Shown one piece after another: positions 3,839-19,888 of a DNA stretch of 64,000 bases. Source of the stretch: a virus (lineage: Duplodnaviria > Heunggongvirae > Uroviricota > Caudoviricetes); the IMG/VR virus record IMGVR_UViG_2563366840_000011, positions 12,067 through 76,066 of that record; one strand, 5' to 3'. The first letter of the stretch is position 1; each line of letters opens with the position of its first letter. Under the pieces are notes generated by a model. The model was given only the letters and a program-made list of their open reading frames with translations, did no database searches and was not told where the DNA came from. Position numbers and translations under genes: made by a program.

Positions 3839-4669
3839 ACCGGACTCCTCCTGCGATCCCTTCTGATACTGTCATCAGCATTACGTCATCCTCCGTCATG
3901 TCCGCCACATCCGGGGAAGCGGGGATAACTTCATTCCCGTCCGGGCCAAAACGAACGCCTCCGGCAAGCCCTGCCGCTTTCTGCATCAGCACATCATCTT
4001 CAGGCTCTTCGTCAGCCTCGCGCCGGTTCAGCAGACTGAAATCCAGCGGATGCATATCCGGATCGCTGAAAAACAGGCTGAGCACGGTGTACGTCAGCCC
4101 GGAAAAGTGCATATCCAGCAGAACATCATGAAAATAATGGGTACTGTAAAAGCGGTGCCAGTCGGCATACTCCGTGGATGACATCCCGGCAAGCATGGCA
4201 CGCCAGTCGGGTCGCCCCATCTCGCGCGCCAGTTTCAGGGCAAAACTCAGCTCACCGTCGAACACTTTCCCGCAGAAACAGGCTCTGCAGGCCCGGCATC
4301 CTCTGCCTGTTCAGGGGCATCATTCACCACAAACTCATACATACCGGACAGCCGGTACACCACGTTTTCAGCATGAGAAATTGCCTCTGTAGGCCAGGTG
4401 GTAAGCACTTCCTGCTCAATCTGTTTAACGGCTTCATTCATGGAAGGCATCTGCGTCTTCTGCGGATGGTTATGCCACAGGGACATCGCCACCACACAAG
4501 CACCGGTTCTGATGGCGTCTTCCACAGTAAACTTCCGGTTGCTGTCTGACTCCGCCTGTTCTGCCTGCCGTTTCATCAGGGCGAGATGCTCAATACGCTG
4601 CAGGGCTGACAGTTCAGAAAGCGTGACGGTCACACCGTTATGTTCAAATGATTCGGTTTTCAGGAACAT
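3831..4669 (-). CDS. T: Tail assembly chaperone G-T fusion (programmed -1 frameshift product)
   Basis: T reading frame (3831-4265) is -1 relative to G and opens at the G GGA AAG heptamer; T ORF ...FDGELSFALKLAREMGRPDWRAMLAG lambda gpT-like. Confidence 0.9.
4247..4669 (-). CDS. G: Tail assembly chaperone G
   Basis: 140-aa ORF MFLKTESFEHNGVTVTLSELSALQRIEHLALMKRQ... matches lambda gpG; ends just after the GGGAAAG slippery site. Confidence 0.95.
   Translation of the reverse strand: MFLKTESFEHNGVTVTLSELSALQRIEHLALMKRQAEQAESDSNRKFTVEDAIRTGACVVAMSLWHNHPQKTQMPSMNEAVKQIEQEVLTTWPTEAISHAENVVYRLSGMYEFVVNDAPEQAEDAGPAEPVSAGKCSTVS
4265..4271 (-). promoter_or_regulatory. -1 ribosomal frameshift slippery heptamer GGGAAAG (G to G-T)
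   Basis: Minus-strand sequence G GGA AAG is in frame with G codons ...A G K C S T V S stop; the -1 frame continues into T. Confidence 0.9.
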
Positions 4670-4684
4670 CGCTGACTCTCCGGA

Positions 4685-5425
4685 TTAACTGGCGGTGACG
4701 TTGATTTCTGCAACCGCAGCAAGTTCACCATTACCGGATACGACCGGAATGTTGACCTTGCCTGCAGCAACACCTTTCACGGTGATGGTCATACCACTGA
4801 CCGACACGGTGGCTTTTGTTTTATCCGCTGACACCGCACGGAAGCTCTTGTCGGTTGCGCCTTCCGGCTGGAATGCCACGGTCAGCGTGGTGCTCTGCCC
4901 TTTCACCACCGAGGTGCTGGCAGGCGTCACGGTCATGCCGGTTGCCGCTGTGACCGTGCTGTGATCTTCTGCCATCGACGGACGGCCCACATTGGTGACC
5001 TTCACCGTGCGGGTGATCACTTCCTTCGCCGTCACCGCCTTACCGATACTGCTGACCCAGCCGCGGAACACATCGACCGTGCCATTCGGGAAGCGGATTT
5101 TATAGGCTCGGGTATCCCCTTCATTAAACCACGCCAGCAGCGCCTGCTGCCCCTGCTCTCCGGGCATCCACGCCAGCGTGAAGCTGGTATCTCCGGCAGA
5201 TTTCTGCCCCTGCCCGGTCGCAGTCCAGTCCGCATCTTCATCATCGAGATAGCTGTCGTCATAGGACTCAGCGGTCAGTTCGCCGGGCGTCAGGTCTTTA
5301 ACTTTAGCCAGACGCGACCAGTCAACGTCTGAAAGCGGGTTCGCATAAGGGTCACCGTTCCCCTTATAAACCCACAGTGTGGTCCCGGCCCCTTTCACCG
5401 GCATTACTGGATTTGGTACAGGCAT
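4685..5425 (-). CDS. V: Major tail protein V
   Basis: [36 protein letters not shown]... lambda gpV-like, 246 aa from ATG at 5425; ORF track extends 10 codons upstream to 5455. Confidence 0.93.
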
Positions 5426-9959: not shown

Positions 9960-13640
<3,681 letters not shown>

Positions 13641-13666
<26 letters not shown>

Positions 13667-14186
13667 TCAGCAACCCCGGTATCAGTTCATCCAGCGCGGC
13701 TGCTTTGTTCATGGCTTTGATGATATCCCGTTTCAGGAAATCAACATGTCGGTTTTCCAGTTCCGGAAAACGCCGCTGCACCGACAGGGGGATCCCGTCG
13801 AGAATACTGGCAATTTCACCTGCGATCCGCGACAGCACGAAAGTACAGAATGCGGTTTCCACCACTTCAGCGGAGTCTCTGGCATTTTTCAGCTCCTGTG
13901 CGTCGGCCTGCGCACGCGTAAGTCGATGGCGTTCGTACTCAATAGTCCCTGGCTGGAGATCTGTCTCGCTGGCCTGCCGCAGTTCTTCAACTTCCCGGCG
14001 CAGCTTTTCGTTCTCAATTTCAGCATCCCTTTCGGCATACCATCTTATAACGGCGGCAGAGTCATAAAGCACCTCATTACCCTTGCCACCGCCTCGCAGA
14101 ACGGGCATTCCCTGTTCCTGCCAGTTCTGAATGGTACGGATACTCGCACCGAAAATGTCAGCCAGCTGCTTTTTGTTGACTTCCAT
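13641..14186 (-). CDS. Nu1: Terminase small subunit Nu1
   Basis: 181-aa ORF MEVNKKQLADIFGASIRTIQNWQEQGMPVLRGGGKGNEVLYDSAAVIRWYAERD... lambda Nu1-like, full length. Confidence 0.95.
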
Positions 14187-14199
14187 TGTTCATTCCACG

Positions 14200-14400
14200 G
14201 CCAAAAACAGAGAAAGGAAACGACAGAGGCCCAAAAGCTCGTTTTCAGCACCTGTCGTTTCCTTTCTTTTCAGGGGGTATTTTAAATAAAAACATTAAGT
14301 TACGACGAAGAAGAACGGAAATGCCTTAAACCGGAAAATTTTCATAAATAGCGAAAACCCGCGAGGTCGCCGCCCCGTAACCTGTCGGATCGCCGGAAAG
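14200..14400. other. cos site (cosB/cosN region); 12-nt cohesive-end sequence at about 14364-14375
   Basis: Plus strand reads ...gcgaaaacccgcgaggtcgccgccccgtaacctgtcggatc..., containing the reverse complement of the lambda cohesive end GGGCGGCGACCT; immediately upstream of Nu1. Confidence 0.85.
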
Positions 14401-14574
14401 GACCCGCAAAATGATAATAATTATCATCTGCATGTCACAACGTGCATCTACGCCATCAAACCACGTCAAATAATCAATTATGACGCAGATATCGTATTAA
14501 TTGATCTGCATCAACTTAACGTAAAAACAACTTCAGACAATACAAATCAGCGACACTGAATACGGGACAACCTC

Positions 14575-14808
14575 ATGTCAACGAAGAACAGAACCCGCAG
14601 AACAACAACCCGCAACATCCGCTTTCCTAACCAAATGATTGAACAAATTAACATCGCTCTTGAGCAAAAAGGGTCCGGGAATTTCTCAGCCTGGGTCATT
14701 GAAGCCTGCCGCCGGAGACTGTGCTCAGAAAAAAGAGTTTCTTCTGAAGCAAACAAAGAAAAGAGTGACATTACTGAATTGCTCAGAAAACAGGTCAGAC
14801 CAGATTGA
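14575..14808 (+). CDS. ynfO: YnfO/YlcI-like small prophage protein
   Basis: 77-aa ORF MSTKNRTRRTTTRNIRFPNQMIEQINIALEQKGSGNFSAWVIEACRRRL...; size and position next to cos match the Qin-type gene as recalled. Confidence 0.6.
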   Translation: MSTKNRTRRTTTRNIRFPNQMIEQINIALEQKGSGNFSAWVIEACRRRLCSEKRVSSEANKEKSDITELLRKQVRPD

Positions 14809-14865
14809 AGCAATTTAGATAATCGTGCAGACTACGCCCCCTCATATCACATGGAAGGTTTATCT

Positions 14866-15276
14866 ATGGATCAGGTAGTCATTTTTAAACAAATATTTGA
14901 TAAAGTTCGAAACGATTTAAACTATCAATGGTTTTATTCTGAGCTAAAACGTCACAATGTCTCACATTACATTTACTATTTAGCCACAGAGAATGTTCAT
15001 ATTGTATTAAAAAATGATAATACAGTGTTATTAAAGGGCCTAAAAAACATTGTGTCTGTCAAATTTTCAAAGGATAGGCATCTTATAGAAACGACCTCTA
15101 ATAAGCTGAAATCCAGAGAGATCACATTTCAGGAATACAGAAGAAACCTTGCTAAAGCAGGAGTTTTTCGGTGGGTTACAAATATCCACGAACAAAAAAG
15201 ATATTACTATACCTTTGATAATTCATTACTATTTACTGAAAGCATCCAGAAAACTACACAGATCTTACCACGCTAA
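14866..15276 (+). CDS. ydfO: YdfO/YbcV-like prophage protein
   Basis: ATG at 14866 giving [39 protein letters not shown]... (136 aa); AT-rich, opposite strand to the phage late genes. Confidence 0.65.
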
Positions 15277-15427
15277 ACCATAACGTCCGGCTTCTCTCAC
15301 TCCTGAGCCGGACTGCATTGGTTTAATAAAAACCATCAACAATTGTGATTTAGATATTCGGAACCATTCAAATATAACAAAACCCCGTAAAAACGAGGTT
15401 TATGGATAAATTTTATTATTGAATACA

Positions 15428-15601
15428 TCAGATTAAATTAATCTTGACATCATAGCTTTCAAGACCCGTCATTTTTTCCCGTGCGGTAAACTGAATACTG
15501 GTAACTTCTTTCCCGGTCTTTTTCTTAAGTTCAATAATTTTTTTTGTTATATATTCAGAAATATCTGCTTCTGCTTTTGTTTTTAAGTTTTCAATATTCA
15601 T
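15428..15601 (-). CDS. gnsB: GnsA/GnsB-family small protein
   Basis: Minus-strand ORF below the 60-aa track cutoff: MNIENLKTKAEADISEYITKKIIELKKKTGKEVTSIQFTAREKMTGLESYDVKINLI; Gns-family-like; alternative start one codon upstream at 15604. Confidence 0.6.
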   Translation of the reverse strand: MNIENLKTKAEADISEYITKKIIELKKKTGKEVTSIQFTAREKMTGLESYDVKINLI

Positions 15602-15772
15602 CATTTCCTCTTTTAGTCTGTTATGACTTTCCAGTTACACAGTAAGTCGATTATATGGTGCAAACGTGTAAAAGATAAGATGAAACATCGCAATAATCAA
15701 CATACGATAGTCTAAATTTTACACAAACAGACAAAGAAAATTTTCCTGAATTATCAATACAATAGCATCAAA

Positions 15773-16003
15773 TCAACTCAAGAGCCTTATTGCTGCTTCC
15801 AGAATTTCTTCTGAAGTAACATGTCGATCCGCGGCTACATAAATGACTTTATGATCTCCGGTCAGAGATGGAAACCCTGCGGCCATTACAGTAAGGTGTG
15901 TTTTTTCGCCATTTGGATATTCACGCATGATGGTGTTAACTCCAGTCATCGCTGGCACTACCACTGCAGGTTCAGAGTTAAAAAAAACTATGATTTTTTT
16001 CAT
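15773..16003 (-). CDS. Hypothetical small protein (start uncertain)
   Basis: ORF MKKIIVFFNSEPAVVVPAMTGVNTIMREYPNGEKTHLTVMAAGF...; ORF track extends to 16045, but a terminator hairpin at 16051-16069 favours the internal start. Confidence 0.4.
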   Translation of the reverse strand: MKKIIVFFNSEPAVVVPAMTGVNTIMREYPNGEKTHLTVMAAGFPSLTGDHKVIYVAADRHVTSEEILEAAIRLLS

Positions 16004-16039
16004 GATGTTACCGTAGTATGTGAGTATCCATCGAATAGA

Positions 16040-16069
16040 TACCAAGCAAAAAAGCTCCCGAAGGAGCCT
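16040..16069 (-). terminator. Rho-independent terminator downstream of cspI
   Basis: Hairpin gctcc-cgaa-ggagc at 16053-16066, followed on the minus strand by TTTTTTGC. Confidence 0.6.
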
Positions 16070-16274
16070 TCATTTTCACTTTTTTAAATCCAACGACAGA
16101 CGGCTGGCATTTAAGTATTGTGAAATATTATCAAATGTAATCATCATTGATTTACAAAAGATACATTTTGCCCCGAAAGGATTCATGTCAGAAACATCAA
16201 AAGATGATGTTCTATACTGGGAACCATGACAACACGGGCATCTAAAGTGAATATGGTTTGTAATATTGTCTACC

Positions 16275-16487
16275 TCAAAGCGCCACTACATGAACAGCGG
16301 CAGGACCTTTAGGTCCGTTCTCAATACCAAATTCAACTTCCTGATTCTCAGTTAATGTTTTGAAATCGTTGCTCTGAATTGCTGAGAAATGGACAAACAC
16401 ATCTTTGCTGCCATCTTTCGGCGTGATGAAACCAAAACCTTTTTCAGGGTTAAACCATTTCACTAAACCAGTCATTTTGTTAGACAT
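16275..16487 (-). CDS. cspI: Cold shock protein CspI-like
   Basis: 70-aa [73 protein letters not shown]; CspA-family fold, sequence as recalled for CspI; long AT-rich 5' region upstream. Confidence 0.9.
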
Positions 16488-16850
16488 AATTATTACCTTT
16501 TGAAGAAATTAGCCCTTGGGCAGAATGGTCCGAAAAAAAATATCAGAGAGAAAAACCAACAAGGAAATCTCAAGAGGTACAAATAATAAAATTATAACAA
16601 TGACTGCTTCAGATAAATTTGTAACAAACCAGAACACCATTAACGCATGATTAACCACCCATAGCAAGGATTACTTTTGTAAAGAAAAACACAGCAATGA
16701 AAGAATAGCTTTATTTATTAATAATAACGTGTCATTCTGATTAAGACCTTTTATCTTACCCTTAAGATTTCAGGAATTTTGGCTCATGGAAGAGTCCTTT
16801 TTATTTAAATTTTACATTCCGCGATGTAAATGTTCCGATTTAATATTACC

Positions 16851-17874
<1,024 letters not shown>

Positions 17875-18406: not shown

Positions 18407-18625
18407 ATCCTCACCCCGATGTACACGGATGGTGCAATATGTTTGAAAAGATCGGAGTCTACGGGGTAGTTTTGACAGCACACGTTGTTCTCAACGGCGC
18501 TAAAAAAACATACACATTAAAAATGTGGGTAATTATTTTGAAAGAAAGTCATATATAAAATAATAATACGAGAAATGTTTTCATATTTAGTGTACTGTAT
18601 ACGGCCATTTATACAGGAAAAGCCT

Positions 18626-18796
18626 ATGTCAGAACGTAAAAACTCAAAATCACGCCGTAATTATCTCGTTAAATGTTCCTGCCCAAACTGCACCCAAGAG
18701 TCAGAACACAGTTTTTCAAGAGTACAAAAAGGTGCCCTTTTGATCTGCCCTCATTGCAACAAAGTATTCCAGACAAATCTTAAAGCTGTAGCCTGA
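18626..18796 (+). CDS. Hypothetical small zinc-ribbon protein (CxxC...CxxC)
   Basis: ATG at 18626 preceded by AGGAAAAG; MSERKNSKSRRNYLVKCSCPNCTQESEHSFSRVQKGALLICPHCNKVFQTNLKAVA; opposite strand to the late operon. Confidence 0.4.
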   Translation: MSERKNSKSRRNYLVKCSCPNCTQESEHSFSRVQKGALLICPHCNKVFQTNLKAVA

Positions 18797-18850
18797 TTGA
18801 TTTTATTAGTAACAAGTATTTTTTATATTTTAATAATATATTTAAAGCAG

Positions 18851-18880
18851 ATAATAAAAAACCCGCCTGAGCGGGTTTGA
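18851..18880 (-). terminator. Rho-independent terminator downstream of cspB
   Basis: Hairpin aacccgc-ctga-gcgggtt at about 18859-18878, followed on the minus strand by TTTTTTATT. Confidence 0.65.
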
Positions 18881-19159
18881 GATTGTGGTGCTTTTTGTGG
18901 GAGTCATCCACTTACGCACTTTGTTTTGCCATGCCAGCAGTTAGCTTCTGCTGTAAAACTATTCATGCAGCAAACCTGCACTTCACCACAATGGTTAGCA
19001 TACTTTTCCTGATTAAGATTTTGCCAAATATGCTAGCCATTGTTTCATGTATTGGACCTCCTTACTTTTTATTAAAGAGATCCAATATTCACTACTCTGT
19101 CCGTATCTCTACTCAGGCATCAGCCTTCTTCGTTATCGTATACAGACGAGCGATGAATT

Positions 19160-19375
19160 TTAATCAGTAATGATGACATTTGCTGCTGCAGGACCTTTAG
19201 CACCACTCTCTATAGAGAAGGTAACCTTTTGACCTTCAAATAAGGTTCGATAATTATCATTCTGAATCGCAGAAAAATGCACAAACACATCTTTACTACC
19301 ATCAACAGGAGAAATAAAGCCGAAACCTTTATCAGCGTTAAACCATTTTACTAAACCAGTCATTTTATTTGACAT
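19160..19375 (-). CDS. cspB: Cold shock protein CspB-like
   Basis: 71-aa [74 protein letters not shown]. Confidence 0.9.
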
Positions 19376-19675
19376 TCTACATTCCTTAACTTGAGCCTTT
19401 CGGCATAAATGGTTTGCATAACAGAAACGACTTCGTACTTAATTGGAGAGACTCAAAGAAGGAATAAGTGAATAACACCTGAAATGAGAACTGCTTTAGT
19501 AAACTACTTCGTATATCGTCTGTTCTTCAAACCGACGCAATCATTAACGCATAGTTGAACATATGAAGCAATGTTTATTTTAGACATCCAGCCATCTTCA
19601 ACCCCATCAAAAAACTATAGCTTTCTTCAGGAACGTGTGTATAGTGCGCCAAGTTATCAGTATTAAGGAATTTTT

Positions 19676-19888
19676 TTGTCCCGTAAAATGACAGGAATTG
19701 TCAAAACCTTTGACGGCAAAAGCGGCAAGGGTCTTATCACCCCATCCGATGGTCGTATCGATGTCCAGCTTCATGTTTCAGCGCTCAATCTCCGCGATGC
19801 AGAAGAAATTACCACCGGATTACGCGTGGAATTTTGCCGGATAAATGGTCTGCGTGGCCCTTCAGCTGCCAATGTTTACCTTTCATGA
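19676..19888 (+). CDS. cspF: Cold shock protein homolog CspF-like
   Basis: 70-aa [73 protein letters not shown]; divergent from cspB. Confidence 0.85.

Follow-up and report, generated by a model that had tools for sequence, protein, structure and literature searches.

The accessory genes at the right end of lambda-like Escherichia coli prophages (i.e., those between the cohesive-end site, cos, and the lysis cassette) have close described counterparts, with which one such segment is compared here. This segment occupies positions 14575-16487 of a 64,000-nucleotide stretch (termed here the window) taken from IMG/VR virus record IMGVR_UViG_2563366840_000011 (positions 12,067 to 76,066 of that record; Caudoviricetes). 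Its nearest counterpart lies in the E. coli K-12 prophage Qin, where the genes nohA-ynfO-ydfO-gnsB-ynfN-ynfR-ynfQ-cspI-rzpQ occur in the same order and orientation as in the window. Another is the right end of lambda and of DLP12 (bor, lambdap78/ybcV, lambdap79/ybcW, ylcI, cos), where a DUF1398 gene and a DUF3950 gene oppose late transcription and where ylcI is the last gene before cos, as ynfO is in the window. A further, chromosomal counterpart is the cspG-ymcF-ymcE-gnsA locus, which resembles the minus-strand genes of the segment both in order (namely csp, a YmcF-like gene, a middle gene and gns) and in its cspA-type leader.

The segment consists of known, annotated cargo genes from the right end of an E. 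coli prophage that resembles lambda and is of the Qin/PhiR42_1 type. Positions 14200-16900 are 99.3% identical to the K-12 Qin prophage over 2701 bp, with gene order preserved; YnfO, YdfO, GnsB, YnfQ and CspI are the same as in K-12 (100% identity); the 2.7 kb around the segment is 100% identical in E. coli IAI1 and in many other genomes; and a complete phage genome on deposit, PhiR42_1, has the same cargo and 99.1% identity over 22 kb. A first-pass annotation, made from the sequence alone, had understated how well known this locus is: all of its genes bear K-12 names and the structure of YdfO has been solved. What is added here concerns the probable fold and role of YnfO, the reassignment of a published FNR site to ynfO, the mosaic joints, and a frameshift in K-12 ynfN. 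The explanation that best accommodates the evidence is probably that this is the right-end 'moron' segment of a Qin/PhiR42_1-type temperate phage, consisting of two independently recombining cassettes, each on its own host-wired promoters in the lysogen; both would be expressed in the lysogen, outside the late lytic programme. The present analysis shows which genes these are, how they are conserved, how the mosaic is built, where the thermosensor and terminators lie, and that the FNR and Fur boxes are present and unique; for binding by FNR and Fur, for induction by cold and for the effect of GnsB on lipids it relies on the literature.

The boundaries of the segment correspond exactly to two initiation codons, the ynfO ATG on the plus strand (14575) and the cspI ATG on the minus strand (16487). 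An exact match to the cosN cohesive-end sequence GGGCGGCGACCT, the only one in the 64-kb window, lies at 14364-14375 on the minus strand; its flanks align with the right end of lambda, and the packaged genome has its right end here. Because Nu1/nohA (13641-14186, minus strand) lies on one side and the Rz-like gene rzpQ, which starts the lysis cassette (16851-17348, minus strand), on the other, the cargo sits between cos and the lysis genes, as had been proposed. Several other first-pass claims likewise agree with the gene calls and base composition: ynfO and ydfO are on the plus strand, against late transcription, gnsB and cspI are on the minus strand, along with it, and the region is AT-rich, its GC fraction of 0.30-0.39 over 14600-16800 (versus 0.53-0.60 in the head genes) differing from its flanks as it does for a moron. 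That the site is a lambdoid moron hotspot is borne out by lambda, which has bor, lambdap78 and an unannotated YlcI/YnfO open reading frame (ORF) at the same position. The four genes originally named were correct, but three small minus-strand genes (ynfN, ynfR and ynfQ) had been overlooked. Domain prediction, which the annotation had recommended for the two plus-strand ORFs, yields DUF3950 for ynfO and DUF1398 for ydfO; both genes are conserved in related prophages and their expression has been published, and, in keeping with the first-pass annotation, no function is stated for YdfO or YnfO in the literature found on this locus.

The two cassettes, cspI-ynfQ-ynfR-ynfN-gnsB on the minus strand and ynfO-ydfO on the plus strand, are exchanged independently. 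Among similar phages the cargo is present or absent as a block, with joints after ydfO and at ynfO codon 50, and in lambda-type elements (lambda included) bor takes the place of the cold-shock (minus-strand) cassette. Several lambdoid phages share the head genes, cos, ynfO and ydfO, their similarity ending at about 15296-15315, i.e., right after ydfO, which is the mosaic behaviour expected of morons. On the other side, the 350-bp block from cos to about ynfO codon 50 is ~96% identical to lambda DNA and then diverges abruptly, homology to the regions upstream of lambda and DLP12 ybcV resuming at the palindrome GGTCAGACC (14793-14801), within the last ynfO codons and ~75 bp before the ydfO start. 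This palindrome forms the left edge of a ~75-bp block that accompanies the DUF1398 genes of Qin, DLP12 and lambda. Because these joints fall at codon ~50 and at GGTCAGACC, residues 1-50 of YnfO are near invariant and residues 51-77 form a mosaic, hypervariable tail. At the breakpoint beyond ydfO a stable 9-bp hairpin (15285-15313, plus strand; -17.9 kcal/mol, z -4.76), which is not directly followed by a U-tract, may serve as a weak terminator or as a 3' stabiliser. Within the 2.7 kb compared with K-12 Qin, 12 of the 18 differences cluster at 14392-14567, in the control region between cos and ynfO, K-12 having the lambda-like allele at most of the 12, while the Fur and FNR cores are unaltered.

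The plus-strand pair is widespread. At least a partial match to the ynfO-ydfO query occurs in 3919 of 5426 complete E. coli genomes (72%), and at least 80% of it is found in one place in 2675 of them, with up to 13 places in some; many complete E. coli genomes contain the DUF1398 gene alone or ylcI alone. YlcI- and YbcV-like proteins are also encoded by dozens of European Nucleotide Archive contigs of ~3.5 kb and by records labelled as Staphylococcus aureus, a Bacillus sp. and a spider. These most likely represent contamination of public assemblies with lambda control DNA, inasmuch as lambda fragments of 3.3-3.5 kb have also been deposited as phage records.

The minus-strand cassette would be a cold-shock module of the same stock as chromosomal cspG-ymcF-ymcE-gnsA. 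It begins with cspI (16275-16487), which encodes a 70-residue cold-shock protein (Pfam CSD, 108.4 bits) and which is overlain, across its 5' untranslated region (UTR) and coding region, by a full-length match (16248-16633, minus strand; model positions 1-428) to the cspA-type mRNA thermoregulator (Rfam RF01766; 112.8 bits, gathering score 78), whose extent places the start of the cspI transcript near 16633. There follow ynfQ (16076-16264), encoding a 62-residue YmcF-like CxxC protein with an annotated non-AUG (ATT) start (Pfam PF23641, 109.9 bits); the annotated 21-residue small protein gene ynfR (16008-16073); the annotated ynfN (15773-16003), which is intact at 76 codons and whose product has no match in Pfam or PDB searches; and gnsB (15428-15601; Pfam-matched ORF 15428-15604), whose 57-residue product belongs to the GnsA/GnsB family (PF08178; 120.2 bits, cut-off 27) and matches the GnsA structure PDB 4XO2 (E 5.4e-20). 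An intrinsic terminator, a 9-bp stem followed by UUUUGUUAUAUUU, lies after gnsB at 15380-15401 on the minus strand and would close the unit. K-12 lacks one A within the A-run at 15973-15980 inside ynfN (PHROG 3425 against 4911); its 51-residue YnfN is therefore the tail of a frameshifted 76-codon gene.

Published expression fits a cold-responsive unit: YnfR-SPA (a sequential peptide affinity fusion) rises strongly after cold shock (PMC6001520), and cspI, ynfQ and ynfN rise together, by 6.5-, 5.9- and 5.8-fold, and are alike in their dependence on LexA and SspA (PMC11228462). Plasmids carrying GnsA and GnsB rescue low-temperature growth defects, and gnsA expression restores unsaturated fatty acid levels (bioRxiv 10.1101/2024.03.27.586906), a lipid effect of GnsA and GnsB being attributed there to Sugai et al. 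2001, as cited in that preprint. The cspA-type leader would act as a thermosensor by which expression increases at low temperature; CspI would serve as an RNA chaperone, and GnsB would increase the content of unsaturated fatty acids. Elsewhere in the window, between the lysis genes and a Q-like antiterminator gene, a second accessory cluster (18575-19888) comprises ynfU (plus strand; a zinc-binding small protein), cspB (minus strand) and cspF (plus strand), with a second cspA thermoregulator at cspB (19144-19536; 158.8 bits); with cspB and cspF besides cspI, the prophage has three csp genes.

The control region between cos and ynfO contains binding sites for two host regulators, and both sites also occur in lambda, DLP12, K-12 Qin, IAI1 and PhiR42_1. 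The FNR box, a perfect TTGAT-CTGC-ATCAA at 14501-14514, is the only match in the window, where 0.09 would be expected. Its centre (14507.5) is 41.5 bp upstream of 14549, and an FNR box at -41.5 is the geometry of class II FNR-activated promoters. A -10 element, GACAAT (14536-14541, plus strand), is predicted from the sequence and from this geometry; transcription starting at about 14548-14549 would give ynfO a 5' UTR of ~26 nucleotides with a GGGA at 14564-14567. Given the -41.5 spacing, the GACAAT element and the 26-nucleotide leader to the ynfO ATG, we infer that FNR acts on ynfO and not on nohA; ynfO would then most likely be driven by a class II FNR-dependent promoter, implying anaerobic induction. 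The identical site has been found by chromatin immunoprecipitation on microarrays and by electrophoretic mobility shift, and was listed under 'nohA/ydfO' and 'nohB' (PMC1802558). A lacZ fusion from the same study, which from its primers reads as directed to nohA, showed little effect of FNR (PMC1802558).

The Fur box, a perfect 7-1-7 palindrome (TGATAAT-A-ATTATCA, 14412-14426), is the only match in the 64 kb at up to two mismatches. It overlaps the -10 element of a promoter-like site directed at cos and nohA on the minus strand (-35 GTGACA at 14438-14433; -10 TATCAT at 14416-14411; consensus score 10 of 12). From its centre (14419) to the nohA start is 233 bp, the same distance as for the published 'nohA' Fur site, a 22.3-bit site that was confirmed by gel shift and that had earlier been selected in vivo (PMC2189734). 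Neither study lists ynfO or ylcI as a gene at its site (PMC2189734, PMC1802558). The control region would hold a Fur-repressed promoter that points the other way from ynfO, across cos; since the genes ahead of it are nohA and those for terminase, packaging genes would come under iron-regulated transcription from within the prophage, a consequence of Fur binding for the phage that neither PMC2189734 nor the other literature found addresses. In lambda-type elements the literature places another FNR site, TGTTGATGATTTATGTCAAATATT, between ybcV and ybcW (about 4290-4310 of the DLP12 locus), immediately upstream of where the GGTCAGACC block begins; the window does not have this second site because the tail of ynfO abuts that block.

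The gene to which the FNR site is reassigned, ynfO (14575-14808, plus strand), encodes a 77-residue protein of the YlcI/YnfO family, which matches Pfam DUF3950 (PF13132; 75.6 bits, cut-off 25) and NCBIfam NF041551 (36.6 bits, cut-off 30). The family is small, with 174 clusters at E <= 0.001 among 1.84 billion representatives. (A direct homologue listing gave close relatives only; the diversity of YnfO was therefore taken from this representative-cluster search.) Selection on ynfO at the protein level is indicated by the Shiga toxin (Stx) phage BP-4795, where DNA similarity begins exactly at the ynfO ATG in an otherwise unrelated context and where 16 of the 25 differences from the window fall at codon position 3, such that 11 codons differ synonymously and 7 non-synonymously. 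(At 4959-5001 of BP-4795 the DUF3950 gene starts 41 bp from a divergent HNH endonuclease gene heading the packaging module, a gap so short that the DUF3950 promoter would lie inside the HNH coding sequence.) A 30-member alignment, extending to ~35% identity, conserves the motif T-x-K-x-I-R-F-P-x-x-L-I-E-x-I ... N-F-S-A-W-V-x-E-A-C.

The N-terminal 50 residues of YnfO (specifically, residues ~13-50) quite likely constitute a ribbon-helix-helix (RHH) DNA-binding domain. The two best matches of the family profile in the PDB, CdbA (E 0.028) and, next, a member of the CopG family (E 0.031), are RHH proteins and align in register; compared by hhalign with an alignment of true CopG/RHH_1 members, the family reaches E 1.6e-4 and a probability of 50.6% over 44 columns, which cover the strand, helix A and helix B; and 2 of the 30 family members weakly match Pfam RHH_6. 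Single-sequence and narrow-profile PDB searches with YnfO returned noise only. The AlphaFold2 monomer consists of an extended N-terminus and helices at 19-32 and 34-54. In size and predicted pattern (a basic N-terminal strand, helix A, a glycine turn and helix B) YnfO, with the sequence NIRFPNQMIEQINIALEQKGSGNFSAWVIEACRRRL, resembles the Arc/Mnt/CopG repressors, although the similarity is below Pfam thresholds; for comparison, the Arc sequence is FNLRWPREVLDLVRKVAEENGRSVNSEIYQRVMESF.

The genomic setting of distant relatives fits a regulator. In 28 satellite-like viral contigs a distant DUF3950 homologue stands by itself, opposed in strand to the genes around it; among the ORFs to one side, 19 match AlpA and others antirepressor and integrase, and the other side has primase genes. 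A recent survey lists the DUF3950 family in phage-inducible chromosomal islands (PICIs) of Enterobacter. YnfO would accordingly be viewed as a small regulator with RHH-type N-terminal 50 residues and with a tail consisting of whatever lies past the recombination joint. Its targets might be ydfO/ybcV, the promoter under Fur control from which transcription would cross cos into the terminase genes, or host genes.

The second plus-strand gene, ydfO (14866-15276; 136 residues), encodes a DUF1398 protein, its match to PF07166 scoring 157.5 bits against a cut-off of 22; no other family was found for YdfO in Pfam, NCBIfam or PADLOC searches. The PDB construct starts where the ORF opens, at 14851, and a GGAAGG Shine-Dalgarno sequence lies 6 nucleotides upstream of the RefSeq start at 14866. 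YdfO is identical at 140 of 141 residues to the nuclear magnetic resonance structure PDB 2HH8 and is intact, at 71-100% identity, over hundreds of variants. In published work induction is strong but varies with the condition: ydfO rises 116-fold by quantitative PCR after ionic-liquid shock (PMC4077768) and responds to induction of DicC, ybcV is up in sabinene-adapted cells, overlapping ybcW-ylcI transcripts have been detected, and a PdhR motif from systematic evolution of ligands by exponential enrichment, AAcaGGTcagACCAgaT, is reported at the GGTCAGACC palindrome (PMC7660256). The cassette is transcribed away from cos; ydfO, its second gene, brings ~75 bp of upstream sequence of its own and would be stress-induced. 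The labels 'head protein' (PHROG) and 'envelope protein' (some records) that YdfO carries look inherited and are without support; they are not used here. The two genes share one reading frame, with the ynfO TGA followed by 14 sense codons up to the ATG at 14851 and by 19 up to 14866 (14806-14865), and the apparent YnfO-YdfO fusion in protein cluster P0122 (233 residues) is an artefact of a gene caller reading this in-frame TGA as tryptophan.

Several observations weigh against these proposals. With regard to fold, the statistics are marginal: the sequence of YnfO by itself matches no Pfam RHH model, its AlphaFold2 model has a predicted local distance difference test score of 66 with no strand modelled (as is expected without the dimer partner), and a Foldseek search of the model against the PDB gave no matches. 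With regard to targets, the window and BP-4795 have neither a common palindrome nor a shared word of at least 10 nucleotides that could be an operator, despite identical predicted DNA-reading residues. With regard to control, a consensus scan called no plus-strand promoter at the predicted ynfO start, so that the link from FNR to ynfO is one of geometry only, and nohA/ydfO is not listed as FNR-regulated in earlier transcriptome studies (PMC1802558). Finally, the oxidative-stress resistance ascribed to YdfO overexpression (PMC4077768, citing Wang et al. 2010) was set aside, ydfO being absent from the main text of the cited paper. An RHH fold and FNR activation of ynfO are inferences, as would be any regulatory link from YnfO to ydfO; that YnfO/YlcI, the lambda copy included, is an FNR-activated RHH transcription factor acting under anaerobiosis is a tentative proposal of rather low probability.

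Other explanations of the plus-strand genes draw on some of the same features. One is that ynfO-ydfO is a type II toxin-antitoxin pair, in which the tail of YnfO, as an RHH antitoxin, would neutralise a toxin of the DUF1398 family and which would keep the prophage stable or abort infection. The layout, an RHH-like N-terminus with a variable tail and then a ~136-residue protein on the same strand, is similar to that of many such operons, and the adjacent gnsB is filed as a toxin-antitoxin toxin family by Pfam and RefSeq. Obligate linkage, however, is missing: ybcW lies between the two genes, on the other strand, in lambda and DLP12; ynfO stands alone in Stx phages, and lone DUF1398 or ylcI genes occur in many genomes; the genes are separated by a 57-nucleotide gap and ydfO brings its own upstream block; the YnfO tail switches at the recombination joint rather than with YdfO (in PhiR49_1_star YnfO is 97% and YdfO 75% identical); YdfO matches no toxin in PADLOC, Pfam or NCBIfam; and the sole fusion protein, P0122, is the TGA artefact. 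This explanation is accordingly improbable. An uncatalogued anti-phage or superinfection-exclusion function seems no less unlikely. Such functions often occupy moron hotspots, an orientation against the late operon would suit expression in the lysogen, and relatives with DUF3950 are found in phage satellites, where cargo for defence is frequent; but PADLOC matches neither YnfO nor YdfO (only its generic CSD model matched CspI), neither protein has an enzymatic or sensor domain in Pfam or NCBIfam, the regulators concerned, FNR and Fur, suggest a tie to host physiology and not to the sensing of infection, and in satellites the DUF3950 gene is in the regulatory rather than the cargo region.

That YnfO binds DNA beside cos, modulating terminase expression or the use of cos, would account for its being always the first gene inside the right end of lambda-type phages, in a 350-bp, ~96% conserved block with cos, and for the recurrence of DUF3950 directly upstream of, and divergent from, the packaging genes of BP-4795, whose HNH-TerS-TerL module is unrelated; moreover, a Fur-controlled promoter reads across cos from the control region, and one protein (P0350; 120 residues) has DUF3950 at its N-terminus, followed by an N-terminal stretch of a Terminase_2 small subunit (E 1.6e-11). 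P0350, however, is a single unverified metagenomic call, which could be a real fusion or a read-through artefact, as a similar-looking fusion proved to be; distant family members are flanked by alpA and primase genes and are remote from those for packaging; and the lambda-type window and BP-4795 share no candidate operator. A role at cos is thus doubtful to much the same degree. It is highly improbable that the plus-strand ORFs are decaying, functionless remnants hitch-hiking with cos. From cos to ynfO codon 50 the lambda-type phages are so nearly identical that selection on the protein is hard to see there, and promoter activity in the region was low under the conditions tested (PMC1802558); against this stand the Stx-phage homology, which begins precisely at the ATG amid unrelated surroundings and in which most changes are at third positions, the intactness of YdfO at 71-100% over hundreds of variants together with the strong inducibility of its gene, and a YnfO family that reaches ~35% identity with a conserved motif. 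Two independently exchanged, host-wired cassettes remain the probable explanation, with the plus-strand cassette reading ynfO and then ydfO.

As K-12 Qin cargo on an intact phage, the locus itself is nothing new, and its value is that of a pointer: two of the most widespread uncharacterised E. coli prophage genes are present in lambda as well, beside cos with bound FNR and Fur sites, and these sites were credited to the packaging gene nohA when the papers concerned had no ynfO or ylcI gene listed. If the tentative view of YnfO/YlcI holds, the 'silent' right end of lambda would gain a regulatory role tied to oxygen and iron. More generally, such an arrangement could explain how lambdoid prophages couple accessory genes to anaerobiosis, iron and cold, which are relevant in the gut.

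Set beside the described systems, each cassette has both a likeness and a distinction. The cold-shock cassette parallels the chromosomal locus at 79% (CspI/CspG), 66% (YnfQ/YmcF) and 65% (GnsB/GnsA) identity; its middle gene differs, YnfN being unrelated to YmcE (18%), and the prophage has the additional ynfR and a gnsB that a 171-bp gap sets apart and that could be transcribed from a separate promoter. In P4-like and PICI satellites the DUF3950 gene occupies a lone, reverse slot between alpA/antirepressor and primase genes, whereas in the window it adjoins cos in a full-size lambdoid phage. In lambda, lambdap78 is a YdfO homologue (79% identity) and the first 54 residues of an unannotated ORF are 98% identical to YnfO (the first 49 being identical), the corresponding DLP12 pair being ybcV and ylcI; lambda-type elements differ from the window in that YlcI has 64 residues and a tail unlike that of YnfO, and in having ybcW (on the other strand) and the second FNR site between the two genes. 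K-12 Qin, finally, has the same genes in the same arrangement, but the prophage in the window has, in comparison, complete terminase/packaging and head genes and matches a complete phage genome.

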